Counted from the stretch's first letter, positions 2,912-16,787 are shown. The stretch is 47,697 bases of DNA from an uncultured Gammaproteobacteria bacterium (GCA_964464785.1 CAYXLS010000001.1:1-47697); one strand, 5' to 3'. Translations and numbers: made by a program. Notes: generated from the sequence alone by a model not told the origin.

Positions 2912-4474
2912 TTATTTTATAATTTTATATTTATAAGCAGCTTTTAGGCGATGGGTTTTTAATTCGCCAAATTTAACGGTAGAAAAAAGCATGGTTGAAT
3001 AATTTTTAAAAATTTTGATTAAATACTTAAAGTCTTCAAAAGTTTTAATTTTTTTGAAAATTGTTGATGGTTTAATAAAAGGTCGGAAAAAGCGAGAAAT
3101 CATTAATTTGTTTTGAGCAATATTTCTTAGTTTTCGAATGTCGTTTACAGAAAGGTATTTGTTACCTAGCCCAACATATCCAGAAAAAGTTTTGCCAATA
3201 TTTTTACTATTAATATCAGTTTTTTTGAGCAAACCTTCTTTTTCTAATATTTTGGTAACATCAGTCTCTGGAAAAGGCATTAGTAATATAAAAACGACAA
3301 AATCTGAAAGTGATTTGATGGCATAATTAAAAGTAGTTTCAATGGCTTTTTTGGTTTCATAAGGGAATCCAATAATGTATGTTGAAAATGTCCAAAATCC
3401 GAGACTGTTGGCCAATTTGATAATTCTTTTAGCTTTTTTTAAGTTTAAATTTTTTCTAATAAATTTTTGAGTTGTGGGATGGCCTGATTCAATTCCAAAA
3501 GTTAGACGATAGCAACCACTTTTTTTCATTTTTAATAATAAATGTTTGTCTAGAGTCCATATCGCAATACCGTTTGGGCAAGTCCATTTTATGTCTAATT
3601 TTTTGGCAATTAGACCGTCACATATTTTCTCAAGCCGCTCTCGATTAACTGAAATATTGTCATCTAAAAAGTGAATTTCTCTAAAACCGTATCTTTTAAC
3701 TAAATGTTCAATTTCATTTACTATTCGTTCGGCACTAAAAGGTCGCCAACAACGTCCCCAAATAGTGGGAACTGCACAATAAATGCAATTATTGGGGCAA
3801 CCACGGCTAGTAACTACAGAGGTATAAGGGGTTCTCATAACATAAGTACCTTTGTTTTCTTTGCCTCCAGAAAGATAAATATCCATAGGTAAAAGATGGC
3901 GGGCTGGTAAGGGTAAAGAGTCTAACTTGGTAATAGGAAGTCTGGTTGGATTTAAAACAATTTGGCCTTGGTTATCTTTAACTGCTGTGCCTTTGATGTT
4001 TAGTAGATCGTGTTTGTTTACAAAATTTTTGACTATTTCTAAAATAGTATTTTCGCCTTCTCCAATAACTACAATGTCAACATTTTTATCAGTTAGTACA
4101 TCTTTGTAAAGGATAGATGCATGTGCGCCTCCAAAAACTACGAGAGTGTTGGAGTTGTGACTTTTGACAATTTTGGCAATATCGTGTGAATCAGAAGAAT
4201 AGGCAGTAAACATTGTACTAATTCCAACAATTTCGGGCTGATAATAGTTTAATTTTTCAACAATAGTTTCTTTTGATAGTCCAATGCGAGTGTGATTTTT
4301 GGTTTTTTTTATGGTGTTTATTCCTTCTGCAAGAGCGTCGATGATTGAAACATTGTATCCATTAGACTCCAAAATTGCCCCTATGTTGGCTAAACCAAGA
4401 GGAATATAAATACCCGGAGTGGTAGTATCGTTATTTCTAATTGTCATTGGCGGATAAAAAAGAAGAATTTTCAT
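2912..4474 (-). CDS. Class B (cobalamin-binding-domain) radical SAM enzyme
   Basis: 520 aa. N-terminus MKILLFYPP...IPLGLANIGAILESNGYNVSIIDA is typical of the B12-binding Rossmann domain in these enzymes. Canonical CX3CX2C in VTSRGCPNNCIYCAV. Confidence 0.8.
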   Translation of the reverse strand: MKILLFYPPMTIRNNDTTTPGIYIPLGLANIGAILESNGYNVSIIDALAEGINTIKKTKNHTRIGLSKETIVEKLNYYQPEIVGISTMFTAYSSDSHDIAKIVKSHNSNTLVVFGGAHASILYKDVLTDKNVDIVVIGEGENTILEIVKNFVNKHDLLNIKGTAVKDNQGQIVLNPTRLPITKLDSLPLPARHLLPMDIYLSGGKENKGTYVMRTPYTSVVTSRGCPNNCIYCAVPTIWGRCWRPFSAERIVNEIEHLVKRYGFREIHFLDDNISVNRERLEKICDGLIAKKLDIKWTCPNGIAIWTLDKHLLLKMKKSGCYRLTFGIESGHPTTQKFIRKNLNLKKAKRIIKLANSLGFWTFSTYIIGFPYETKKAIETTFNYAIKSLSDFVVFILLMPFPETDVTKILEKEGLLKKTDINSKNIGKTFSGYVGLGNKYLSVNDIRKLRNIAQNKLMISRFFRPFIKPSTIFKKIKTFEDFKYLIKIFKNYSTMLFSTVKFGELKTHRLKAAYKYKIIK

Positions 4475-4479
4475 TTTAG

Positions 4480-5934
4480 TTATTTTTTAGATTGAGAAAT
4501 TAAAAACATAAATATTTTGTTAATTAATTTGTTGTCGTACACTAATTTTCTAGTTAAATGAGCAAAAAGTGGAATACGGGTTAGTAAATAAAATATAGTT
4601 CCAAGTATTTTACCAAAACGAAATTGATAAAGTTTTCGTTCGTAAAGAGCAAAACCTTTTTTCATAACTCTAATTCTTTGATCTTTGGTAAACTCTTTGG
4701 TTTCAAATATAGGATTGATGTCACGATAGGAGATGTGTTTTAAATACTGGTTTTTGGGTATTAAAAAATGAGCATTTTTGATAGCCCAATCGTAAACTTC
4801 AGTACCTGGATATGGTACTAAATTATAAAAATTAACGTAATCACAATTTAAACTTTTTGCAAATGATAAAGTTTCCAGAGCTTCTGAATAGGTTTCTTCT
4901 TGATGTCCGATTATGAAATTAACGGCATGTTTAATCTTCGTTTGACTGGTTAATTTGACAGCTTGTCTAACTTGTTCAAGGGTAATGTTTTTTTTGATAC
5001 GGTTAAGTGTTTTTTGACTACCTGATTCACATCCATAAGCAATAAAGTAACAACCAGCTTTTTTGAGTTTTTTAAGTAATTTTAAGTTTATATTATTTAC
5101 TCTGATACCATTGTAAAGCTGAAATTTAATCTTTAATTTATTTTTGACTATAAGATCACAGATGTTTTGAGCTCGATTGATATCGAGAGTAAAACAATCA
5201 TCATTGATATCAAATCTCGAATATCCTTTTTTGTACCAATAAATTATTTCGTCAACAACATTTCTGGGACTTCGGGGTCGAAAACATTGCCCCATAGATA
5301 ATTTAACTGAACAATAATTACAACCGTAGGGGCAACCTCGAGAAGTGATTATAGGAATTATTTTTTCGTTATAGCAAGGATATTTTTTTATTTTAAAACT
5401 TTCATAATCTGGAAAAGAAAGATCGTCTAATTTATAAATAAGAGGTGCAGGGTTGTTAATGATTATTTTATTTTTATTTTTCCAAATTAAATTGGGAACA
5501 TGTGAATAATCTGGAATTTTTTGAGAAAAAACTTGTAAAAAATCTATAAAAGAATTTTCTGATTCACTATACATGGCAAAGTTAATTTTAGTTTCTTTTA
5601 AAATTGTTTCTTTTGTGGCGGAAACATGAGGACCTCCGAGAATAATGGGTATATTGGTGATAGTTTTAATCGTTTTAATGGTGGAATAGAGATAGTCATA
5701 GGCATAACTAAAACCAGTTACTCCGATAATGTTAGGAGAAAAATTCTTTATGGTAAGTTTTATTTTTTTTATATAATTTTTTTCAACACCACAATCTATT
5801 ATTTGAAATTGAAAATTATTTTTTTTAAGAACAGATACTAGATAGGCAATACCAACATGAGGGTGAATAGGTATTCCTTTTTCAGTACCAAACATCGATT
5901 TGATTTCGGGAATGATAAAAAGTACTTTCATCAA
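4480..5934 (-). CDS. Class B (cobalamin-binding-domain) radical SAM enzyme
   Basis: 484 aa. N-terminus VLFIIPE...HVGIAYLVSVLKKNNFQFQIIDC, then CX3CX2C in ITSRGCPYGCNYCSV. The first codon in the track is TTG at 5934; an ATG follows at 5931. Confidence 0.8.
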   Translation of the reverse strand: MMKVLFIIPEIKSMFGTEKGIPIHPHVGIAYLVSVLKKNNFQFQIIDCGVEKNYIKKIKLTIKNFSPNIIGVTGFSYAYDYLYSTIKTIKTITNIPIILGGPHVSATKETILKETKINFAMYSESENSFIDFLQVFSQKIPDYSHVPNLIWKNKNKIIINNPAPLIYKLDDLSFPDYESFKIKKYPCYNEKIIPIITSRGCPYGCNYCSVKLSMGQCFRPRSPRNVVDEIIYWYKKGYSRFDINDDCFTLDINRAQNICDLIVKNKLKIKFQLYNGIRVNNINLKLLKKLKKAGCYFIAYGCESGSQKTLNRIKKNITLEQVRQAVKLTSQTKIKHAVNFIIGHQEETYSEALETLSFAKSLNCDYVNFYNLVPYPGTEVYDWAIKNAHFLIPKNQYLKHISYRDINPIFETKEFTKDQRIRVMKKGFALYERKLYQFRFGKILGTIFYLLTRIPLFAHLTRKLVYDNKLINKIFMFLISQSKK

Positions 5935-5939
5935 ATAGA

Positions 5940-7019
5940 TTAATTTATTATTTCCATAGAAAAGTCTTTATTGAAAAATTTAGCGATTTTTTTGAAAATT
6001 CTAAAATAATTTTTTCCTAAAATATTACCAATAGTAGTGGCGATAACTCCTCTTAAACCAGAAGGCATTCCTAAAATTGTTTTTTCCCACAAACTATCAC
6101 AGTTTTGACAGTAAGAATTATATTTTAGATATGTTTTATCAATCATAGATTTTCTAAAATTAATCATTTTTCGATTATTCCAAATAGATTTTATAGTTTC
6201 TGTATTGACATTACCTAAAACATTTTGACCAAAAAAGTCTGAGCAACAAGCAACAACTCGACCATCCCAAAGTATTCCGAGTGACCCCCAAAGGTATGAG
6301 CATGGAGAAAAAATATTACTTAATTTTTTTGGGAAAAATTTTTTGGTGTTGTTAAATACACCTCCCCAGGTACTAGGTTTTCTAATTTGAATACTGTCAA
6401 GTGGTAAATTGGCAAAATTCATTTTAAATTTATCAATATTTTTTTGATAATCTAGGATTCCCTTTTGATTTAGTAAAAGAATTTGAAGTTCTGTTGTAAT
6501 ATTAGATTTAAGTTCTTTTTTAATCTTTAAAAATTCAACGACGTTTTTTAGTGTTGGTTCAAATTTACCGTTAATTCTAATTTTTTCATAAATTTTTTTG
6601 GTACAACCATCGAAAGAGAAATTGATCCAATCTAAACCAGATTTGATAATTTGTCGAGATAATTTTGGAGTTAAGATAGTTGCATTAGTTGATAAATAAG
6701 TTTTGATGCCATTATTTTTTGCATATTTAACCATTTGTGGGAATTTTGGATGTAAAAGAGACTCTCCAGAAATACAAAGAACTATATAAGATATATAGTT
6801 CTTACTTTGATCAATTATTTTTTTATACAGATTTAAGTCCATAAAACCGAGTTTATCTTGGCTTATAATAGAGTTAGGACACATAAGACATTTTAAATTG
6901 CATTTGTTTGTCGGTTCAATCCACAAAGCTAGTGGTTGGTAACAAAGTTTAATGATTTTGAGTTTATAACTAATAATTGAGCTTACGATTGCAATACTAT
7001 TTTTTATTTTTTTTATCAT
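5940..7019 (-). CDS. Radical SAM enzyme with a C-terminal SPASM/twitch-like Cys-rich extension
   Basis: 359 aa. CX3CX2C in EPTNKCNLKCLMCPN. C-terminal CSYLWGSLGILWDGRVVACC (CX12GX4C) followed by YCQNCD (CX2C). Confidence 0.75.
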   Translation of the reverse strand: MIKKIKNSIAIVSSIISYKLKIIKLCYQPLALWIEPTNKCNLKCLMCPNSIISQDKLGFMDLNLYKKIIDQSKNYISYIVLCISGESLLHPKFPQMVKYAKNNGIKTYLSTNATILTPKLSRQIIKSGLDWINFSFDGCTKKIYEKIRINGKFEPTLKNVVEFLKIKKELKSNITTELQILLLNQKGILDYQKNIDKFKMNFANLPLDSIQIRKPSTWGGVFNNTKKFFPKKLSNIFSPCSYLWGSLGILWDGRVVACCSDFFGQNVLGNVNTETIKSIWNNRKMINFRKSMIDKTYLKYNSYCQNCDSLWEKTILGMPSGLRGVIATTIGNILGKNYFRIFKKIAKFFNKDFSMEIIN

Positions 7020-7031
7020 AGTAGTTGAAAT

Positions 7032-8090
7032 TTAATTTTCAGGAGTACTGATATTACGTTGTGATTTAAAGAAATTAGCAATATATGAGAGAAGACTAGT
7101 TTTGACCATAAGGTGATTGGTTTTGAAAAGTGTAGTGTCTGTAATTTTTCTATTTTTTTGAATAATATATCTCTTTTTTAATATTTTAGATAGATTAGTT
7201 ATGTTCCAAATAATACCATGAAAAATATTTATAGAGGACTTAAACTTTCCAGTTATAAGAAGGAATAAACCTAGAGAAAACCACAAAACAAGATGTATCG
7301 GTAAAATTTTAATTAAATTTAAAATTGATAAGTTTTTGATTAATGTCTGGATATAATTCTTTGTACCGTGAAATCTGATTAAGTAATTATTAAAATCTTT
7401 ACTTACGATATTTTTAGTAGAAGAAAATTGATGATAAACGATGGATTTTGGACAAAAAAGATTGTGATAACCTGATAACCAAGTTCTCCAACCTAAATCA
7501 GTCTCTTCCATAAAGATAAAATAGTCTGGATCAAATTTACCCGCTTTTATAAAAGCATTTCTACTAATAAACATACCAGCAGATTTTGCTGCTAAAATAG
7601 GATAAATTTTGTTATATTGACCTTTATCAATGTTTCCATATGAGCTAATAGGTTTTAAAAATCCAAGATTTCCAAGAAATTCACCCACGTAATCAATACG
7701 TTTTTTTTGATTTAGAAGTAATAATTTGCATTGTATTACACCTATTTTTTCATTTATGTTAAAAAGGTTAACAGCTTTTAAAATCCAATTTTTATCAACT
7801 TCAGTATCATTGTCTAAAAATGCAATATATTTACCTTTACTGATTTTAAATCCTTCGTTACGTGCAAAAGCTGGACCATAATTTTTTGAAAGTTTTACAA
7901 ATTTAATCTTTGTTAAATATTTAATAAATTTTTTTTTAATAAAACCAATACTATTATCAGAAGAAGCATTGTCAGATACTATTATTTCGTAATTATGGTA
8001 ATTATTTTTTAGAATTGAAGAAATACAATTTTTTAAAAAGATTTTACCATTATAATTAATAATAATTACAGAAACTAATGGATATTTCAT
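7032..8090 (-). CDS. Family 2 glycosyltransferase (COG1216 / rhamnosyltransferase-like), with a C-terminal hydrophobic segment
   Basis: 352 aa. VSVIIINYNG, SDNASSDNS and the FLDNDTE DxD-type motif. C-terminal helix ILPIHLVLWFSLGLFLLITG. Confidence 0.8.
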   Translation of the reverse strand: MKYPLVSVIIINYNGKIFLKNCISSILKNNYHNYEIIVSDNASSDNSIGFIKKKFIKYLTKIKFVKLSKNYGPAFARNEGFKISKGKYIAFLDNDTEVDKNWILKAVNLFNINEKIGVIQCKLLLLNQKKRIDYVGEFLGNLGFLKPISSYGNIDKGQYNKIYPILAAKSAGMFISRNAFIKAGKFDPDYFIFMEETDLGWRTWLSGYHNLFCPKSIVYHQFSSTKNIVSKDFNNYLIRFHGTKNYIQTLIKNLSILNLIKILPIHLVLWFSLGLFLLITGKFKSSINIFHGIIWNITNLSKILKKRYIIQKNRKITDTTLFKTNHLMVKTSLLSYIANFFKSQRNISTPEN

Positions 8091-8746
8091 TTTATAATTT
8101 TAACAGCAAAAAGCCCAAAAGAATATTTTGGAGAATAATAATTTAAAATTTGAAATAAAGCATTGATCGCATAAAAAAAAGGACGTGGATAAAATTTAAT
8201 ATTTTGATAAAATTTTCCATTTATAAGGCTATCGACATTGTTTGATGGTTTATAAAAAATTTTTAAACCACTAACACCATAAACTTTAAAACCATTTTTT
8301 TTAAGTTCAGTAATTGACCATCCAGATAAATGTTTTTGATATTTATTGTTGTCAACTAAATCCATAGGAAAATAATTATTAGGAGTAGATAGAATAACTT
8401 TTTTGCTTGCCCATTTTTGAGCTAATTTTAATATTTTTAAACCATTTTTTTTAGAAAGATGTTCAAGGACTTCAATTAGAATTACGGCATCAAAACTTTT
8501 GGGTTTAAAATTTAAATTTAAAATATTTTTTTGAAGATATTTAGTATGAATGTTTTGTTTTTGAGAAATATCTAAATATGGTTTAAAAAGTTCAACCCCA
8601 ACGCTGTATTCAATATTTTTAATATTTTTCAATGGAGATGAAGGGCCACAACCAAGATCAAGTACAGTTTTACAATTAACTAATTCTTTTTGGAGACAAT
8701 AATCAATTTTATGAACGATTTTATAGATGATTTTTTTTATACTCAT
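8087..8746 (-). CDS. Class I SAM-dependent methyltransferase
   Basis: 219 aa. Motif I VLDLGCGPSS and motif II-like AVILIEVLEHL. 4-nt ATGA overlaps with both neighbours. Confidence 0.75.
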   Translation of the reverse strand: MSIKKIIYKIVHKIDYCLQKELVNCKTVLDLGCGPSSPLKNIKNIEYSVGVELFKPYLDISQKQNIHTKYLQKNILNLNFKPKSFDAVILIEVLEHLSKKNGLKILKLAQKWASKKVILSTPNNYFPMDLVDNNKYQKHLSGWSITELKKNGFKVYGVSGLKIFYKPSNNVDSLINGKFYQNIKFYPRPFFYAINALFQILNYYSPKYSFGLFAVKIIK

Positions 8747-10134
8747 TTGATCTTTTTTTTATAAGGAGCTCTTGAAGAAGAACCTCTTATTAAAACTGAT
8801 ATACCTTCGATAATATCGGTTTTAATTTTGTTAAAAGATGTTATATCACTTATAATGCGATTAAAAATATATTTTGGTCTTAAATAAAATTTTCTAAATA
8901 TATTTTTTCTTTGTAAATAAACCCAATCTTTATTTAAAGTTTTTGGTATGTAAATTGGATAAACGCCAGAATAACCTTTACCAAGTTTACCAAGTGCAAA
9001 ATTATCAATAAAATTTTCATTTACTATTCCTTCTTTTAAAGCATATAACCATAATTTTGATCCAGGGAAAGGGGTAGCGATTGAAACTCCAATTATTTTA
9101 AAATCATTTTTTAGAACAAAATCAATAGTTTTTTGGACATTTTTTGGTTTTTCGGTTGGATGTCCGAACATAAAAAAACCATTTGCTTCAATTTTATATT
9201 TGTTACAAAGTTTTATAGTATTAATAATTTTTTTGTTTGAAAAACGTTTTAAAACAATTTCATTTCTTATTCTCTCGTCTCCTGATTCAATCCCAAAAGT
9301 AAGGCTATAACAACCAGCTTGACTCATTAATTTTAATAGGTTATTGTCAACCAAGTCAACTCGAGTATAACCAGCCCAACGATATTTTTTATTTTGTTTT
9401 ATTAATTGATGGCAAAAATCAAATATAAATTTGCGATTGATAGTTAATGAATCATCTTGGAAAAGATAATCACCCCCACAATGTTGGGATAATGAATCCA
9501 TTTCTTTAATAACGTCTTCTACTTGTCGACATCTGACTAAATTGCTGATACATGGTCGACTACAATAATAACAATTAAAAGGACAACCTCGGGTAGCCAT
9601 AATTGAAGCTGTTCGATGATATTTTGAAAGATCTAACAAATGATATGCAGGCCATGGAATTAGTGATAAATCTTTTGGAGTTTCTCCAATTATAATTTTG
9701 TCTATTTTTTGATGATTAATGATTTTTTGATAAGCTTTTAGAAAACTATACTCAGCCTCTCCGGTAATCCCAAAATCAAAATATTTAATTCTAGAGATAA
9801 ATTTTGGATCAGCACTAATATGAGGACCTCCAAGACAAATTTTAATTTTTTTATTATTTTTTTTAATTTTTTTAGCTAAAGTAACGGTTCCTTGTAAAAG
9901 TGGAGTCATGGATGAAAAACCAACTATTAATGGATTTTCATTTTTAATAATTTTTAAAGTTTCTTTTAAATTTTGTTTTTGAGCTCCAATATCGATTACT
10001 TTGACAGAAATGTTATGTTTTTCTAAAACAGAAGCTAAATACAAAATACCTAAAGGAGGATAACTAACGTCAAGTACTTGAGGAATGTTATTTTGATAAT
10101 AAACTGGTGGATAAATTAATATTACTTGAGTCAT
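8743..10134 (-). CDS. Class B (cobalamin-binding-domain) radical SAM enzyme
   Basis: 463 aa. N-terminus VILIYPP...PPLGILYLASVLEKHNISVKVIDI. CX3CX2C in ATRGCPFNCYYCS. Confidence 0.8.
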   Translation of the reverse strand: MTQVILIYPPVYYQNNIPQVLDVSYPPLGILYLASVLEKHNISVKVIDIGAQKQNLKETLKIIKNENPLIVGFSSMTPLLQGTVTLAKKIKKNNKKIKICLGGPHISADPKFISRIKYFDFGITGEAEYSFLKAYQKIINHQKIDKIIIGETPKDLSLIPWPAYHLLDLSKYHRTASIMATRGCPFNCYYCSRPCISNLVRCRQVEDVIKEMDSLSQHCGGDYLFQDDSLTINRKFIFDFCHQLIKQNKKYRWAGYTRVDLVDNNLLKLMSQAGCYSLTFGIESGDERIRNEIVLKRFSNKKIINTIKLCNKYKIEANGFFMFGHPTEKPKNVQKTIDFVLKNDFKIIGVSIATPFPGSKLWLYALKEGIVNENFIDNFALGKLGKGYSGVYPIYIPKTLNKDWVYLQRKNIFRKFYLRPKYIFNRIISDITSFNKIKTDIIEGISVLIRGSSSRAPYKKKIK

Positions 10135-11273
10135 TAATTATCAAACTTAATATCTAAAGCACAACAACGAAAACATGCAGGGATTATTTTGGATTTTAAA
10201 AATATTTTTCTAAAGTTATTTACTTTATTACTATGCCAAATACCCATTAATGATTGTTGGTGAATATTACCAGCAATAAAACCATGACAAATTTCAACAT
10301 CACCATTACCACGAAGAAAAATTTGTCTAAACGGAGATACACATTTAGATTTTTTACTTGGAAAAACTCCAGTATAATATTTTTCTAAATCTACTTTATC
10401 GTTGATTGAAATTATTAGTTTTTTATTTTTTATTGAAGTGATTTTTTTAATTTTATCTTTAATGGTATTAATTTCTTGTTGATTAAAATAATTTTTTTGA
10501 AAACCTAAATCTTGACCCCAAATATCATTTCCAGTTTTGTATTTTTTATAAAATTTATTTTGGTTTGATTTAATATCATTGTAGTAATAAAAAAAATGAC
10601 TAATAGACCATTGATCAACTTTTATCTTCTTTGCCAAAAAGTATATTTTATTGAAATTTAAATAATTTGATTTGTTGATAACGGTAGCGATTCTGATATT
10701 AGGAAAATGATTTGTTCCTTTTAATTTAATTACTTTTTTTATTCCTTTTATTATTTTATTAAATGAACCCTTGACGTAACCTCGAAGATATTGCGTTTGT
10801 TCATCTGGACCATCAAGCGAAACAGCTAAGAAATCAAGGCCAGAGTTAACAATATTTGAGGCATATTTTTCTAAGAGTAAACCATTTGTAACTAAACCAG
10901 TTGGAATTTTTTTACTATGAAGATATTTAATAATTTTAAAAATTTCTGGATGTAATAATGGTTCACCTCCTGAAAGTTGAAAAGAAATACCTTTTTTATA
11001 GCCCTCTTGTGCAATTTTTTTTATATCTGAAAAAGTCAAAATATTGGTGTATTTTTGTCGAGAATTACCGACATGACACATAGGACATTTAAAATTACAT
11101 TGTTCGGTAATAAAACAATTTATTAATCTAGGAAAATTTGTTGCTTTTTTATTAAAAAAAAATGAATCTGTAAGAGTATTTATAGCAACCTTGGGGTATT
11201 TGATTGCAAGTTCTATTTTTTTAAATAAAGATATATTAATCATGGAAGTATGATTTAGTAATAATATTGGCAT
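10134..11273 (-). CDS. Radical SAM enzyme with a C-terminal SPASM/twitch-like Cys-rich extension
   Basis: 379 aa. CX3CX2C in ITEQCNFKCPMCHV. C-terminal CVSPFRQIFLRGNGDVEIC (CX12GX4C) and CFRCC. The internal ATG at 11243 (MINISLF) would cut the 38-nt overlap with the upstream gene to 8 nt, so the start is uncertain. Confidence 0.75.
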   Translation of the reverse strand: MPILLLNHTSMINISLFKKIELAIKYPKVAINTLTDSFFFNKKATNFPRLINCFITEQCNFKCPMCHVGNSRQKYTNILTFSDIKKIAQEGYKKGISFQLSGGEPLLHPEIFKIIKYLHSKKIPTGLVTNGLLLEKYASNIVNSGLDFLAVSLDGPDEQTQYLRGYVKGSFNKIIKGIKKVIKLKGTNHFPNIRIATVINKSNYLNFNKIYFLAKKIKVDQWSISHFFYYYNDIKSNQNKFYKKYKTGNDIWGQDLGFQKNYFNQQEINTIKDKIKKITSIKNKKLIISINDKVDLEKYYTGVFPSKKSKCVSPFRQIFLRGNGDVEICHGFIAGNIHQQSLMGIWHSNKVNNFRKIFLKSKIIPACFRCCALDIKFDN

Positions 11274-12372
11274 TTTGAGTACCGAATTTTTTTAGAGCAA
11301 AAGAACGACAATTTAATTTCATATCAGTAATGATATTAGGTTTTTGTATAAGTATGTTTATTATTTTTAATAGATTTACTTTGGTTGGATTTATTGAAAT
11401 TCCAACTTGTGGAGAATACATTTTGGAAACAGAACCTTTGTTAGTTGTAATTACAGGTGTTCCACACATTAATGATTCCATTACTATCATTGGTTGAGCT
11501 TCAGGAGCTAATGAAGGTAAAATTGTAAAATCATTGTATTGGTAATATTTTATAATTTCCAATGGTTGTTTTTTCCCTAATATTTTAAAGTTTTTTTGAT
11601 TAGTACTTGACTTTTTTAATTTTTTATAATCCGGGCCGTCACCGATGATAGTAATAACTATCTTTGGATTTTTTTTAGCTAAAAAAAGTAAATTGAATAC
11701 TCCTTTCATACTAATAATTCGACCGACAAATAACAAATTAAGAAGAAATTTAGAATTATTTTTTTTTAATATTGGTTTATAAACTTGAGGATCAAGCCAG
11801 TGATGATATTGACATATTTTTTCTTTATTTATACCTATTTTTTGTAATTGAATGCTTGATTTTTGGCTAACAGTAAGTATTTTATGAAATCCTTGGAAAG
11901 TCCATTTAAAGATTTTTGTAGATATTTTTGATATATCAAGATTTGGATATAAATAATGTGTACTGACAATTAATCTGATATTTTTAATATATAAACAAGA
12001 GATACGAGTGATAAAAGCTGCGGCAAATCCATGAGCATGAATGACATCAACATTTTTTTTATTTTTTAATAAATAAATAAAGCTATTTAAAAGAAGCCCA
12101 GGGATTATATAAATAAATTGTAATAAAGGATAAGAGGTAGTAATGTCGAATATTTTTTTACCAAACCACCAATATCGATGAATTGTTAAATTTTTAGATT
12201 TTTCAACTTTTAAATATTTTTTAACTTTGGTTGTTAGTGGTTTATATGTAAGAACAGTAGTATTATAATTAAGTTTGGTTAAGTGTTCAGTTAAAAGATT
12301 TAAGTGACTTTCAACTCCGCCAATATTAGGTCTGAAAAATGGACAAATAATTAATATGTTTTTTGTTTTCAT
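11236..12372 (-). CDS. GT-B fold glycosyltransferase, family 4 (GT1-superfamily) type
   Basis: 378 aa. N-terminus ILIICPFFRPNIGGVESH. C-terminal EX7E motif in APEAQPMIVMESLMCGTPVITT. Confidence 0.75.
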   Translation of the reverse strand: MKTKNILIICPFFRPNIGGVESHLNLLTEHLTKLNYNTTVLTYKPLTTKVKKYLKVEKSKNLTIHRYWWFGKKIFDITTSYPLLQFIYIIPGLLLNSFIYLLKNKKNVDVIHAHGFAAAFITRISCLYIKNIRLIVSTHYLYPNLDISKISTKIFKWTFQGFHKILTVSQKSSIQLQKIGINKEKICQYHHWLDPQVYKPILKKNNSKFLLNLLFVGRIISMKGVFNLLFLAKKNPKIVITIIGDGPDYKKLKKSSTNQKNFKILGKKQPLEIIKYYQYNDFTILPSLAPEAQPMIVMESLMCGTPVITTNKGSVSKMYSPQVGISINPTKVNLLKIINILIQKPNIITDMKLNCRSFALKKFGTQNANIITKSYFHD

Positions 12373-13392
12373 TTAGAAATTCCACCAAAAAGTTCTAAGT
12401 TTACAATTTTGGCATAATTTTAAATTATTAGTGTCAATATTTAAATGTTTTTTTCTAATATATTCAAAATTTTTATTTTTCCATATTGATGCAATAGAAT
12501 CTTTTTTGGCATTACCTAGTATAATTTCGCCTTCAATATCTTGACAACAAAGAGAAATGGTTCCATCCCAATTAATTAACATTTCAGTAAAAGGAAGTCG
12601 ACAGGGAGATCGACTAAAAGAAACATAATTGTTTATGGATAAGTCAAGATTTAATTTTTTTTTGTTTGACCAATCATGGATTTGTGAGATACAAACTTTA
12701 TCAACTAGTTTTTTCCATTTATTGAGAAATTTTTTAGTTTCTTTTTTATTAAGATTAAATTCTAAAAAGTCTATAATAATTTTCGGTTTATTTGTTTTTA
12801 GCTTTTTTTTAAGACTTATTAAATATTTTATATTTTTTTGAACTAAGTCATAATTTAATCCAATTCTTATTTTTTGATATGTTTTTTTGGTAAAAGCGTC
12901 AACACTGATAAAAATTTCGTCTAAACCGGAATTAATAATATCTTTAGCAATTTTTGGAGTTAATAGTGTACCGTTGGTATTGGTAGATACTCGTAAAATA
13001 TTTTTTGATTTAGCATATTTGACTTTCCAGGAAAAATTTTTATCTGTTAATGGTTCGCCAAAATTATGTAAATTTATATATTTTATATTTAATTTTTCTG
13101 TCTGATTTATAATATTTTTATATAATTTTTTTGACATTGTTCCTTTTTTCCTTTTCATCGTTGGATAAGGACACATAAAACATCGACCATTACAAATATT
13201 AGTGTTTTCGATTCTAAGGCTAAAAGGTTTATTTCTATATTTATTTATTACTAGGGCTATTTTCTTTTTTAAAAAAAATTGGTAGATGTTATTTTGTAAA
13301 AATATCTTTTTTGATAAAAACCAGTTAAACATTTTTTTTATAGGATAATTGTACAGAATAGTGTCTAGTATTATTTTGTTTATTGTCGCCAT
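12373..13392 (-). CDS. Radical SAM enzyme with a C-terminal SPASM/twitch-like Cys-rich extension
   Basis: 339 aa. CX3CX2C in ENTNICNGRCFMCPY. C-terminal CRLPFTEMLINWDGTISLCC (CX12GX4C) and LCQNCK (CX2C). Confidence 0.75.
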   Translation of the reverse strand: MATINKIILDTILYNYPIKKMFNWFLSKKIFLQNNIYQFFLKKKIALVINKYRNKPFSLRIENTNICNGRCFMCPYPTMKRKKGTMSKKLYKNIINQTEKLNIKYINLHNFGEPLTDKNFSWKVKYAKSKNILRVSTNTNGTLLTPKIAKDIINSGLDEIFISVDAFTKKTYQKIRIGLNYDLVQKNIKYLISLKKKLKTNKPKIIIDFLEFNLNKKETKKFLNKWKKLVDKVCISQIHDWSNKKKLNLDLSINNYVSFSRSPCRLPFTEMLINWDGTISLCCQDIEGEIILGNAKKDSIASIWKNKNFEYIRKKHLNIDTNNLKLCQNCKLRTFWWNF

Positions 13393-14396
13393 TGTTGTCG
13401 ATTTAATTGTTTTAATATTCCTAACTTATTTTTTATAGTGTTGATAGTATAAAGATAGAGAGTAATAAAACAAGCTACTGGATGTAAAAACCAAGCGACA
13501 TCAGGTTTGTTGTAAAAACCCCTAATACTATCGAATAAGGGGGGAAATAAAAAAATTGTGTACAAAGAAAATTTTATAACACCTGATTTATTGGTATTGT
13601 CCCAATTGTATTGCCTTAAATTTTGATAATAAAAATAATCAGTGATACGACGATTTTGTTTACGAATAAATTTTTTGAATGAACTTTCACAAAAAGTATG
13701 GATAATCCCCTGTTTTACTTTGGCAAAATAAATTGATTTTTTTGATTTGTTTAAATATTGACTGATAATGTCTATGTCAAAAAGATAATCAGATTTTAAA
13801 TTTTTTTTGAGAAAGTCAGCTCTAAAAATTGTGCCATTGGCACCAATAGTGGGAATTGGTAATTTTGGTTTCAGTTCTGCTTTAATATAATTTGGATAGT
13901 CTATTTGATTTATTTTTAAACCAGTCCATTTGAAATTTATAAAATTTTTCCGATCATAAACGCCAGTTACAAAAGCATAAGGATCATTGATGCCAAAAAG
14001 AGCTGAGTATCTTTCGATGTAACCGGCATTTTTTCGATAAGTAAAAAATAATGGTTCAGATCCGATTAAAGAGGTGTCTTTGTCTAGTATATCTAAATTG
14101 GTTTTCAACCAAGATTTTGTTGGCAATATATTGTCTGAATCAATTAAGGCAATGTATTTGCCTTTAGCGATTTTGACTCCAACTGCTTTGCCAGCTTCAG
14201 CGGTTTTGAGTAGGTTTGAGACTATTTGGGCATGATATTTTTGGGCTATTTGGAGGGTTTTGTCGGTGGAACCACCGTCAGATATTATTATTTCATAATC
14301 TTTAGAAATGATAGATTGTTTTTTGATGGATTTTAGACAAATTTCTAAAACCTTTTCAGCATTGAGAGTAGGGATAACAAATGAAACTTTTATCAT
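13380..14396 (-). CDS. Family 2 glycosyltransferase
   Basis: 338 aa. VSFVIPTLNAEKV, ISDGGSTDKT and LIDSDN (DxD). Hydrophobic C-terminal region. Confidence 0.8.
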   Translation of the reverse strand: MIKVSFVIPTLNAEKVLEICLKSIKKQSIISKDYEIIISDGGSTDKTLQIAQKYHAQIVSNLLKTAEAGKAVGVKIAKGKYIALIDSDNILPTKSWLKTNLDILDKDTSLIGSEPLFFTYRKNAGYIERYSALFGINDPYAFVTGVYDRKNFINFKWTGLKINQIDYPNYIKAELKPKLPIPTIGANGTIFRADFLKKNLKSDYLFDIDIISQYLNKSKKSIYFAKVKQGIIHTFCESSFKKFIRKQNRRITDYFYYQNLRQYNWDNTNKSGVIKFSLYTIFLFPPLFDSIRGFYNKPDVAWFLHPVACFITLYLYTINTIKNKLGILKQLNRQQWRQ

Positions 14397-15886
14397 GAGA
14401 AATCTTTTAATTTTTTAATATATTTAAAAGCATAATTTGTCAGATGCTTTATATCATCAAAGTTTCTAATTGAGATAATTTTTTTTATAATAAATTTTGG
14501 AGTAATTACACCTTTAAATAAATTTTGAATTAACTCTATTTGAGTTTGTGGTGGGATAGGTGATTTAATTATGGGTTGACGCATATCGTAATCATTCCAA
14601 TTAGTAGTCAAAAGTAAATTGTTTTTTTGACAATAGTTAAAAAGTGGAGTTCCGGGATAAGGAATAAGTAAAGTTGCTTGAAGACTGTCAGCTAAGTTGT
14701 TTTGAAAGATAAAACGAGCTAGATTTAAGGTTTTTTGAGATTCGCGAAGTGTTTCATTTGGATAACCAATCATAGTGGTGACATGTGGTTCAAGTTTAGC
14801 TTTTTTGGTCATTTTTAAAGTTTTTAGGGCAGCTGAAGTCTTTTCGTTTTTGTTGACAAATAAGAGGGTTTTTTGATTAGCAGATTCCAGGCCATATAGA
14901 ATAAATCTAAAGCCAGATTTTTTCATCAAAAAATATTCTTTTTGACTTAAGGCTCCAAAGCGCATATTACAGCCTAAAGCTACTTTTTTGTTTAGACCTC
15001 GGGTTATAAGTTGATTACATAAATCATTTAACCATTTACCAATAGGAAGTGTCCCAGAATCATCAAAAATTTCTTTAACACCAAAGTTATAAACTAAATT
15101 TTCAATTTCTTTAAGAGTGTGTTTAACTGAAAATGAGTGAAAATTTTTGCCTGGAAACAAGGTAACCCAGCTCCAAAAAGTGCATTTTCCCCACCAACAA
15201 TCTCGACCAGACATGATGTAACTACCGGGTTTGTATTTATAGTTAGTATTGTTATAAGCATAAAGTTGCCATTGAGTTAATTTTCTGTCAATTATAGGTA
15301 ATTTAGCTAAGTTAATTGATTTTTGGAGTTTATAAATTTTATCTTTAGGAGCATTGCCTTTATTAATAAGATCAATTAATTCTTCAAGTAAAAAATCATA
15401 ATGACCACCAATTAATACATAGTCTACTTTACAATTATCAATTGATTCTTGAGGAAGTGCCGTGACATGGTCACCCATAAGGACTACAAGTGGTTTCCAG
15501 CGACATTCTTTTTTAATTTGATTGATTATTTGCCAATGCTTTTTGACGACTGGAGTTTTAGTTTCAATAGCAATTAAATCTGGTTTATTTTTTTTAAGCT
15601 CTTTAAACCAAACTTTATAACTAAGATTTTTAGCAATGGCGTCATCCCAAAATATTTTTAAACCTTGTTTACTAAGTAAAGAAGCAGCATAAGCTGGAAC
15701 TATTGGGTAAATGACGTTGCCGGTATTAGTCCATTGGAATTGACGATTTTGAGATAAAAAGGCAGTTCCCTTTGGAGATTCTAGTGGTGGATAAGAAAAA
15801 GAAATAGATTTAACCACCAATGTATTTGCCAGTTTTTTGGTCAAACGAGTGGGGTTTAAATTTGACGTCTTTTTTGGATAAACCAT
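14393..15886 (-). CDS. Cobalamin-binding-domain radical-SAM-like protein with an incomplete Fe-S cysteine motif
   Basis: 497 aa. The layout matches the other class B enzymes (N-terminal Rossmann-like region, central barrel region). The cluster motif reads SGRDCWWGKCTFWSW, that is C-X4-C-X2-W, with TGG where a third Cys codon is expected. The 77-nt overlap with the upstream gene would shrink to 8-11 nt if GTG (15817) or TTG (15820) is the real start. Confidence 0.6.
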   Translation of the reverse strand: MVYPKKTSNLNPTRLTKKLANTLVVKSISFSYPPLESPKGTAFLSQNRQFQWTNTGNVIYPIVPAYAASLLSKQGLKIFWDDAIAKNLSYKVWFKELKKNKPDLIAIETKTPVVKKHWQIINQIKKECRWKPLVVLMGDHVTALPQESIDNCKVDYVLIGGHYDFLLEELIDLINKGNAPKDKIYKLQKSINLAKLPIIDRKLTQWQLYAYNNTNYKYKPGSYIMSGRDCWWGKCTFWSWVTLFPGKNFHSFSVKHTLKEIENLVYNFGVKEIFDDSGTLPIGKWLNDLCNQLITRGLNKKVALGCNMRFGALSQKEYFLMKKSGFRFILYGLESANQKTLLFVNKNEKTSAALKTLKMTKKAKLEPHVTTMIGYPNETLRESQKTLNLARFIFQNNLADSLQATLLIPYPGTPLFNYCQKNNLLLTTNWNDYDMRQPIIKSPIPPQTQIELIQNLFKGVITPKFIIKKIISIRNFDDIKHLTNYAFKYIKKLKDFS

Positions 15887-16787
15887 ACAGGAATAGTATA
15901 CCGTAATAAATATGAGTGATGGGAATTGTTAGAGTGGCTAAAAGAGAGGGCAAAAGCTTATTTTTCTTAATTAGAAATATTACTAAAGTTATAAGTAATA
16001 TTGATAAATATATATATAATGGAATATACAATAAAATATTGTTAAATATTAAAATATTTAAAATTAATAATAATAAGTAAAAGACAAAAAAAGAAGGTAA
16101 AAGATATCCGATTTTAAAAGAAGTTTCAGGGAATTTTTTAGCAAAAAATCCACGTTGAATGGCGTATCGAGTAATTTGTTGAAGGTGAGGCATAATAACT
16201 GAGCGACGATGATGGAAAACTACTAAAGATGGGTGATAATAAATTTTTAAATTAAATTTTTTAGTTAGATTTAGACAAAGAACAGTATCTTCTCCTGGCC
16301 AATATTGATTATCAAAAGAACCAGCTTTAAAAAAGTCTGTTTTTTTGACAATTAAATTAACACTGGGATAATCTTCAACAAATCTTGATGGTTTAATACT
16401 ATTTCGATAAACTCCAGCTCCACCACTACCAAGAAAACTAGACCAAACTAGACCAGAAGATTGTTGATAAAGATTGTCTTTAGGTGGAGTTAGACATGGA
16501 CCACAAAAAGAAGCGTAATTGGGGTGTTTAGTTACTAGTTTTTGGGCTTGTTTAAAATAATTTTTTGAAGGAAAAGAATCATCATCAAAAAAAACTAAGT
16601 AATCACCCTTAGCTTTTTTAGCACCTAGATTTCTTTTTTCTGATGGATTAGCAGAACCCGAAACCTTATCGGTAATAACTAAGATTTCAAAATTTTTAAT
16701 TGTTTGTTTTTTTAAGGCTATAATAGTTTCTTGGAGATAACTATTTTCCTTACGTATAGGTATAATTATAGAAAAGATAATTTTCAT
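15810..16787 (-). CDS. Family 2 glycosyltransferase with a C-terminal multi-helix membrane anchor
   Basis: 325 aa. FSIIIPIRKEN, the FFDDDS DxD motif and WPGEDTVLC. The last roughly 110 aa contain several hydrophobic helices (LLPSFFVFYLLLLILNILIF..., LSILLITLVIFLI...). Confidence 0.75.
   Translation of the reverse strand: MKIIFSIIIPIRKENSYLQETIIALKKQTIKNFEILVITDKVSGSANPSEKRNLGAKKAKGDYLVFFDDDSFPSKNYFKQAQKLVTKHPNYASFCGPCLTPPKDNLYQQSSGLVWSSFLGSGGAGVYRNSIKPSRFVEDYPSVNLIVKKTDFFKAGSFDNQYWPGEDTVLCLNLTKKFNLKIYYHPSLVVFHHRRSVIMPHLQQITRYAIQRGFFAKKFPETSFKIGYLLPSFFVFYLLLLILNILIFNNILLYIPLYIYLSILLITLVIFLIKKNKLLPSLLATLTIPITHIYYGILFLYGLSKKDVKFKPHSFDQKTGKYIGG

Follow-up and report, generated by a model that had tools for sequence, protein, structure and literature searches.

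We analyzed a stretch of DNA of 47,697 nucleotides (GCA_964464785.1 CAYXLS010000001.1:1-47697; referred to below as the window), which is the first 47.7 kb of a 90.9-kb contig from a 0.98-Mb genome (233 contigs, 89.5% complete), and characterized three of its genes that encode radical S-adenosylmethionine (SAM) enzymes, here called R1, R2 and R3. The window has a G+C content of about 27%, nearly all of its genes lie on the minus strand, and it represents a glycosylation locus of about 45 kb with many glycosyltransferase (GT) genes of the GT2, GT4 and PMT-type GT-C families, a gene for a YfhO-like protein and genes for class-I methyltransferases; no RNA elements were found in the window at Rfam gathering scores. 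Close homologs bear the source name Candidatus Shapirobacteria, and the host is probably an ultra-small bacterium of this group, which belongs to the candidate phyla radiation (CPR).

The three genes and their cysteine motifs

R1, R2 and R3 are part of a block of 12 genes (2912-16787, all on the minus strand; 13,876 nt, 13.9 kb) that are transcribed in the order GT2, B12-type radical SAM gene, GT2, R3, GT4, R2, B12-binding radical SAM gene, methyltransferase, GT2, R1 and two B12-binding radical SAM genes. The spacing between neighboring genes ranges from -77 to +12 nt, and 22 nt of the 13,876 are intergenic. The block is one operon within the surface-glycan locus of about 45 kb. The coordinates of the three open reading frames (ORFs) and the motif strings that had been given in the original prediction, made from the sequence of the window alone, were exact, and the genes are encoded on the minus strand:

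5940..7019, minus strand: R1, radical SAM enzyme of 359 aa whose twitch domain resembles that of BtrN (PF04055, PF13186; best PDB match BtrN, 6e-13)
6099..6302, minus strand: twitch domain of R1, residues 240-307, with C240, G253, C258, C259, C304 and C307 (regular-expression search)
10134..11273, minus strand: R2, radical SAM enzyme whose core is BlsE/MoaA-like and whose twitch domain has four cysteines (PF04055, PF13186, PF13353)
10164..10343, minus strand: twitch domain of R2, residues 311-370, with C311, G324, C329, C367 and C370 (family alignment)
12373..13392, minus strand: R3, radical SAM enzyme of 339 aa whose twitch domain resembles that of BtrN (best PDB match BtrN, 9e-16)
12403..12603, minus strand: twitch domain of R3, residues 264-330, with C264, G277, C282, C283, C327 and C330 (gapless alignment to BtrN)

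The real start of R2 is probably Met11 at 11243, since R2 and its orthologs are annotated in databases as proteins of 369 aa that begin there. The 38-nt overlap of R2 with the GT4 gene (10134-11273 versus 11236-12372) is probably an artifact of taking the longest ORF, and it shrinks to 8 nt with the Met11 start.

All three proteins contain a CX3CX2C motif, followed by C-X12-G-X4-C and a single CX2C. The radical SAM motifs read CNLKCLMC, CNFKCPMC and CNGRCFMC, and the corresponding domains match PF04055 with E values of 5e-17 to 5e-23. In R1, the cysteines are Cys40/44/47 (CNLKCLMC), C240-X12-G-X4-C258 (CSYLWGSLGILWDGRVVAC) and C304QNC307; in R2, Cys59/63/66, C311...C329 (CVSPFRQIFLRGNGDVEIC) and C367FRC370; and in R3, Cys67/71/74, C264...C282 (CRLPFTEMLINWDGTISLC) and C327QNC330. 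The chain continues beyond the CX2C motif for 9 residues in R3, 9 in R2 and 52 in R1, whose tail is free of cysteine. Each protein has a fifth C-terminal cysteine that the original prediction had overlooked. R1 and R3 have it as part of a CC doublet (C259 and C283, respectively). The doublet shows no variation among 24 aligned family members with identities as low as 36%, and 94 of 101 homologs from other loci keep it. The fifth cysteine of R2 (C371) is not conserved, whereas C311, G324, C329, C367 and C370 are invariant in the R2 family alignment. Indeed, the four cysteines that correspond to those of BtrN and the glycine are invariant in the family alignments, and a GGE-type motif is conserved in the SAM-binding core. 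The twitch signature as a whole is retained in 94/101 homologs, and none of the 101 has CX2CX5CX3C. The motifs have not arisen by chance, as even homologs of only 36% identity keep the five cysteines and the glycine unchanged.

The CX2CX5CX3C motif of the full SPASM domain was also not found by regular-expression search in the 12 proteins of the block. Since the Pfam model PF13186, which matches R1, R2 and R3 end to end, has 67 positions and ends at CX2C, it does not separate twitch from SPASM domains. The model of the full SPASM domain, TIGR04085, has 93 positions and a curated cut-off of 27 bits. It aligned with R3 at positions 1-68 only (26 bits) and with R1 at positions 1-66 only (25.8 bits), and did not match R2. 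The model N_Twi_rSAM covered the twitch region of R1 and R3 in the aligned stretches shown; the stretch shown for R2 was the core. The AlphaFold2 models of R3 (pLDDT 90) and R2 (pLDDT 88) have a hairpin around the conserved glycine (residues 270-280 and 317-327, respectively) and then a helix ahead of CX2C (residues 307-317 and 349-361), as expected of a twitch domain. In addition, R3 possesses a 55-residue N-terminal extension that folds into four helices in the model and a C-terminal FWW tail that is conserved in the family alignment, and in R2 an inserted helical segment (about residues 232-300) separates the core from the twitch domain.

Because the motif for a second cluster is missing and the TIGR04085 alignment stops at position 68 of 93, we assign the domains of all three proteins, on sequence grounds, to the twitch class and not to full SPASM. 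A seven-Cys domain that had been misread is ruled out by the motif search and by the partial, sub-cut-off TIGR04085 matches, and the reduced auxiliary-cluster domain of the original prediction stands. Each enzyme should carry two [4Fe-4S] clusters, one that cleaves SAM and an auxiliary one with four cysteine ligands. The SPASM maturases anSME, PqqE, SuiB and CteB have folds related to those of R1-R3 and share with them the first half of the domain, which explains the PF13186 matches. Their motif is CX9-15GX4C-gap-CX2CX5CX3C-gap-C, whereas R1-R3 lack CX5CX3C and the last cysteine.

Relatives of R1, R2 and R3

R1 and R3 are 37% identical over 292 aa, and R2 could be aligned with them only locally, at 26-34% identity. 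In a maximum-likelihood tree, the R1 group (support 87/87) and the R2 group (100/100, on a long branch) are both apart from the R3 group. This separation identifies R1, R2 and R3 as ancient paralogs with their own orthologs and not as recent copies. The view that the three are paralogs of one architecture was therefore correct for R1 and R3, but R2 forms a family of its own with local similarity to the other two. The R1 orthologous group comprises proteins of 40-82% identity from CPR bacteria, Planctomycetota and Magnetobacterium, and the R1/R3 family as a whole is very large, with 8,741 clusters at 50% identity (E ≤ 1e-30).

The closest solved relative of R1 and R3 is BtrN, the 2-deoxy-scyllo-inosamine dehydrogenase of butirosin biosynthesis (PDB 4M7T/4M7S) and the founding twitch enzyme. 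Besides being the best PDB match of both single sequences, it was found with the R1/R3 family profile at an E value of 2.3e-25, with BlsE next at 1.6e-10, i.e. 15 orders of magnitude behind. BtrN (4m7t) was also the top hit of a Foldseek search with the R3 model (E 5.6e-14, TM score 0.72 on the target). C264, C282, C327 and C330 of R3 align gaplessly with the twitch cysteines 169, 187, 232 and 235 of BtrN (4m7s numbering, with the ligand numbers taken from the alignment to the PDB chain). The auxiliary cluster of BtrN is fully ligated, by four cysteines (PMC9012708). BtrN and R1/R3 are alike in the CX3CX2C motif, the C-X-G-X4-C hairpin, the late CX2C and the absence of a second auxiliary cluster motif. 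Compared to BtrN, R1 and R3 have an added helical N-terminal extension of about 55 residues and the CC doublet, and in addition R3 has the FWW tail and R1 the 52-residue tail. In the tree, BtrN was present as fragments only and on a very long branch (4.85), so its placement there is unreliable.

The nearest relative of R2 is BlsE, the cytosylglucuronate C5-decarboxylase of blasticidin S biosynthesis (PDB 7VOB, TIGR04466), which was its best PDB match (3e-13 with the sequence, 1e-21 with the family profile) and the top hit (7vob) of the fold search with the R2 model. To BtrN, R2 was related in the twitch part only (1.5e-10 with the family profile). BlsE acts on a sugar and has been described with a single [4Fe-4S] cluster (PMC3715490), whereas R2 has the four invariant twitch cysteines in addition, and it differs from BlsE also in the helical insert. 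The BlsE equivalog model TIGR04466 has a cut-off of 400 bits, and the scores were 70 for R2, 36 for R1 and 36.5 for R3. No other curated NCBIfam equivalog took in the proteins either; the best match was a model for a tungsten-cofactor maturase, at 106-122 bits with a cut-off of 380.

To summarize, the proposal that the three proteins are nearer to BtrN than to peptide maturases was borne out for R1 and R3 by sequence, profile and, for R3, fold, but not for R2, whose nearest relative is BlsE. R1 and R3 are relatives of BtrN and not its orthologs. BtrN belongs to a 2-deoxystreptamine antibiotic cluster, whereas R1 and R3 are encoded in a surface-glycan operon with glycosyltransferases and B12-binding radical SAM enzymes. 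No 2-deoxystreptamine or aminoglycoside core genes were seen in the operon or in the related loci. We regard R1-R3 as new, uncharacterized representatives of a known class, the twitch radical SAM enzymes that act on sugars.

Gene context and the search for a peptide substrate

The remaining genes of the block are as follows:

2912-4474 and 4480-5934, minus strand: two B12-binding radical SAM genes directly downstream of R1 (PF02310, PF04055)
7032-8090, minus strand: GT2 glycosyltransferase between R1 and the third B12 enzyme (8743-10134) (PF00535)
8087-8746, minus strand: class-I SAM methyltransferase, likewise between R1 and the third B12 enzyme (PF08241)
8743..10134, minus strand: B12-binding radical SAM gene directly downstream of R2
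11236..12372, minus strand: GT4 glycosyltransferase between R3 and R2 (PF00534, PF13439)
13380-14396, minus strand: GT2 glycosyltransferase at the head of the block
14393-15886, minus strand: B12-type radical SAM gene at the head of the block, with a CX4CX2C-type motif that reads CWWGKCTFW
15810-16787, minus strand: GT2 glycosyltransferase, first gene of the block

The proteins encoded at 2912-4474 and 4480-5934 reached no NCBIfam cut-off. The family of the 14393-15886 protein has the cluster motif CX4CX2C (CWWG[KRS]C[TS]FC), found in 9 of 10 orthologs, and not CX3CX2C. In the protein of the window, the third cysteine of this motif (residues 230-238) is replaced by tryptophan (TGG, codon 15173-15175), which either is inactivating or stems from a sequencing error in one base.

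The gene order of the block recurs elsewhere. A relative with an R1 ortholog of 81% identity has the same 12-gene order minus the methyltransferase at 8087-8746. A locus with an R1 ortholog that is named Candidatus Falkowbacteria at NCBI has a B12-binding radical SAM gene, a GT2-GT4 fusion, an R3-type gene, a methyltransferase, an R2-type gene, a second B12-binding radical SAM gene and an R1-type gene. R3-GT4-R2-B12 is kept in CPR and Auribacterota loci, and the pair of R2 and the B12-binding gene recurs in other lineages (loci L004-L006, L090 and L091). More distant homologs, at 39-52% identity, from Omnitrophota and other lineages lie among genes for GT2/GT4 and AftD-like GT-C glycosyltransferases, RmlA/B/D-type enzymes, DegT aminotransferases and methyltransferases. 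In species-representative genomes we found 285 loci, which belong to Patescibacteria, Omnitrophota, Planctomycetota, Desulfobacterota-type bacteria, Nitrospirota, Chloroflexi, Bathyarchaeota and others.

Among the 128 genes located no more than two positions from a homolog in 32 loci, the commonest Pfam families were Radical_SAM (16), GT4 (12-13), LptF/LptG (12) and SPASM (9), and then GT9 heptosyltransferase (8), Methyltransf_11 (7) and GT2 (6). None of the 25 commonest neighbor families listed for these 32 loci was a RiPP family (RiPPs are peptides that are made by the ribosome and modified after translation). At least one glycan-type gene (glycosyltransferase, B12-binding radical SAM enzyme, methyltransferase, sugar-nucleotide enzyme or lipopolysaccharide (LPS) gene) was present within 6 kb in 64 of 82 loci from many phyla. 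By neighbor cluster, GT2/GT4 genes were found within this distance in 42 loci, B12-binding radical SAM genes in 21, methyltransferases in 15, sugar-nucleotide short-chain dehydrogenases/reductases (SDR) in 15, GT9 in 13, LptFG in 12, AftD-like genes in 8 and DegT in 5. The top matches among BtrN-like proteins include fusions, two with a C-terminal class-I methyltransferase (Methyltransf_11/23) and one tandem radical SAM protein (P0419, P0494, P0382 and P0320, including a CDP-alcohol fusion); in the latter fusion, an R1-type protein is joined to a CDP-alcohol phosphotransferase domain. The frequent adjacency or fusion to methyltransferases and B12-binding radical SAM enzymes points to a coupling of methylation with the radical step.

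Several further observations concern the distribution of these genes. In the related genomes, an R1-type match (E ≤ 1e-20) was present in 8 of 30, and in 5 of 18 of the same genus, none closer than 33% identity; the glycan locus is otherwise conserved in this lineage, and the radical SAM block is thus a variable and accessory portion of it. In diderm loci of Planctomycetota and Desulfobacterota-type bacteria (L030, L032, L035, L039, L043, L050, L052 and others), R3-type homologs of about 32-37% identity adjoin LptF/LptG and GT9 heptosyltransferase genes, which may indicate that the LPS core is modified by radical chemistry. In the same genome as the window, a fourth twitch-like radical SAM gene (contig C16, locus L093, 4287-8529) overlaps the start of a DegT aminotransferase gene, and genes for a PIG-L deacetylase, a xylose-isomerase-like TIM barrel protein and an SDR follow further on. 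A radical SAM enzyme, an aminotransferase and a PIG-L protein are the enzyme types of the BtrN, BtrS and BtrD steps in 2-deoxystreptamine pathways. With this gene set, a CPR genome may encode a pathway to an amino sugar or an aminocyclitol.

A cognate precursor peptide was not found at the locus, as the original prediction had stated. With 22 intergenic nt there is indeed no room for one in the block, where every ORF of 25-120 aa lies 61-100% inside a gene and none stands free in a gap. When 957 small ORFs near homologs from 84 loci were clustered, no family recurred in more than 5 of these loci. The small ORFs that do cluster stem from a non-coding stretch conserved in a few Planctomycetota loci, of which they are overlapping reading frames on the two strands. 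This stretch, which lies just upstream of an R3-type gene in L039 (about 9500-9920) and also in L043, L050 and L058 (Planctomycetota/Phycisphaerae), gave no Rfam match and could be a novel leader or RNA element. A domain of the RiPP recognition element (RRE) type was likewise missing. The N-terminal extensions in the R3 and R2 models are helical only, with no winged helix or beta-sheet, and no PqqD-like domain (PF05402) was found in the 89.5%-complete genome, where the best E value was 0.19. In a distant RiPP-type relative, a weak PqqD match (E 8.8e-4, below the Pfam cut-off) was obtained, so an RRE might have been detected if present. The same genome gave no match to sulfatases (PF00884), and R1-R3 have only one auxiliary cluster motif, neither of which agrees with an anSME.

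Proposed chemistry, alternatives and implications

From the sequences, the structure models and the gene context, we consider it likely, with a probability of roughly 60%, that R1, R2 and R3 are twitch radical SAM enzymes that tailor carbohydrate, not peptide, in a surface-glycan operon. That the substrate is a carbohydrate appears quite probable when taken by itself. For the more specific proposal that R1 and R3 catalyze carbinol oxidation or epimerization, made by analogy with BtrN, we put the chances slightly below even.

If R1 and R3 work like BtrN, a 5'-deoxyadenosyl radical would take a hydrogen atom from a carbinol carbon of the sugar. The resulting hydroxyalkyl radical would lose a proton and hand one electron to the twitch cluster, yielding a keto-sugar. 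Alternatively, the radical could be re-quenched from the other face to give an epimer. In aminoglycoside pathways, the twitch radical SAM epimerases and dehydrogenases NeoN, HygY and SpeY remove a hydrogen from a sugar carbinol. In the epimerases, a cysteine then gives a hydrogen back, which is Cys249 in NeoN (PMC10991966), and by analogy with this residue the invariant extra cysteine of R1 and R3 is a candidate hydrogen donor. The keto- or epimerized sugar would then serve as the substrate of the neighboring methyltransferase, of the B12-binding radical SAM enzymes or of the next glycosyltransferase. R2 probably catalyzes a different radical step on a sugar, e.g. a decarboxylation of a uronic acid like that of BlsE, and would use an auxiliary cluster in addition.

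Several facts weigh against this interpretation. The twitch domain does not fix the substrate class: it is present in MoaA (PMC6231123, PMC9012708) and in the RiPP maturase SkfB (PMC6231123), and because of the latter the case for the substrate rests on homology and gene context and not on the cysteine count. Identity to BtrN is only about 20-25%, the second cysteine of the invariant CC doublet is a phenylalanine in BtrN and thus has no counterpart there, and the substrate of BtrN is a free aminocyclitol of an antibiotic pathway, not a glycan. The fold search with R2 ranked the peptide enzyme SuiB almost level with BlsE. Furthermore, 18 of the 82 related loci have no glycan genes within 6 kb, one R1-type homolog is located between KsgA and FtsK, and the operon contains no aminotransferase or reductase that would use a keto product.

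One alternative is that the enzymes act on a lipid or polyol, such as the polyprenyl carrier, the head group of a membrane lipid or a unit derived from a CDP-alcohol, for instance a cyclitol or glycerol phosphate. The fusion of an R1-type protein to a CDP-alcohol phosphotransferase domain is in line with such a target, as is the cyclitol substrate of BtrN, and a location at a membrane surface is conceivable for the FWW tail and for the conserved amphipathic helices of the N-terminus. The radical SAM cores also match the lipid enzyme GDGT-MAS, and the B12-binding partners resemble HpnJ and lipid-specific B12-binding radical SAM models, all below the cut-offs. However, the CDP-alcohol fusion is a single case on one 3-kb contig, the GDGT-MAS match is limited to the generic radical SAM core, and glycosyltransferases and sugar-nucleotide enzymes dominate among the neighbors. 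We therefore regard a lipid or polyol target as unlikely.

Another alternative keeps the carbohydrate substrate and assigns a different chemistry to R1 and R3, such as dehydration, C-C bond formation, addition of the 5'-deoxyadenosyl group or priming for methylation. Indeed, the sugar-acting fold matches BtrN, BlsE and DesII differ in reaction type, the frequent pairing or fusion with class-I methyltransferases and B12-binding radical SAM enzymes suggests coupled methylation, and the extra invariant cysteine may donate a hydrogen or serve as a thiyl site. Nevertheless, no other characterized enzyme comes nearly as close as BtrN, a dehydrogenase whose cluster is fully ligated (PMC9012708), and all four of its ligands are retained, which makes such a chemistry rather improbable.

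Finally, it is very unlikely that R1-R3 are RiPP or protein maturases with a precursor elsewhere in the genome, similar to the twitch sactisynthase SkfB, which acts on a peptide (PMC6231123), or to an anSME: although PF13186 'SPASM' matches were obtained, the best NCBIfam matches were metalloenzyme and peptide maturase models (all far below their cut-offs), and SuiB, SkfB and anSME appeared among the fold matches, peptide enzymes are 15 orders of magnitude below BtrN with the R1/R3 family profile, the neighbors are glycan genes across many phyla, and neither an RRE (the N-terminus of the R3 model being a four-helix structure), PqqD or sulfatase nor a free or recurrent small ORF was found in the searches described above.

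The database label 'radical SAM/SPASM domain protein', which serves as a RiPP marker in genome-mining pipelines, is too broad for such proteins, because the Pfam SPASM model ends at CX2C and cannot tell twitch from SPASM. What this label covers here is a BtrN-like family of very large size, encoded in the envelope-glycan and LPS loci of anaerobes that are mostly uncultured and include archaea. Our literature searches gave no report of twitch or BtrN-like enzymes from polysaccharide, LPS or CPR glycan loci. Within the family, the conserved R3-GT4-R2-B12 cassette is a small, defined gene set.

If R1-R3 indeed edit sugars, they point to a surface-glycan chemistry that has not been described, with keto, epimerized or branched sugars, and the CPR surface so modified may be the contact face with hosts. 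A more far-reaching idea, which we put forward as a doubtful but conceivable extension, is that the 12-gene block is a glycan assembly line with one radical enzyme for each lipid-linked sugar added by a glycosyltransferase, and that the R1/R3 family stands for a general, O2- and NAD-independent editing of envelope sugars in anaerobes. In such an assembly line, R3, R2 and R1 would carry out oxidation, epimerization or decarboxylation and the B12 enzymes C-methylation, and the product would be a surface glycan heavily modified at its carbon atoms. Were this editing common to the whole family, sugars, including those of LPS cores, would be altered after they have been built in.

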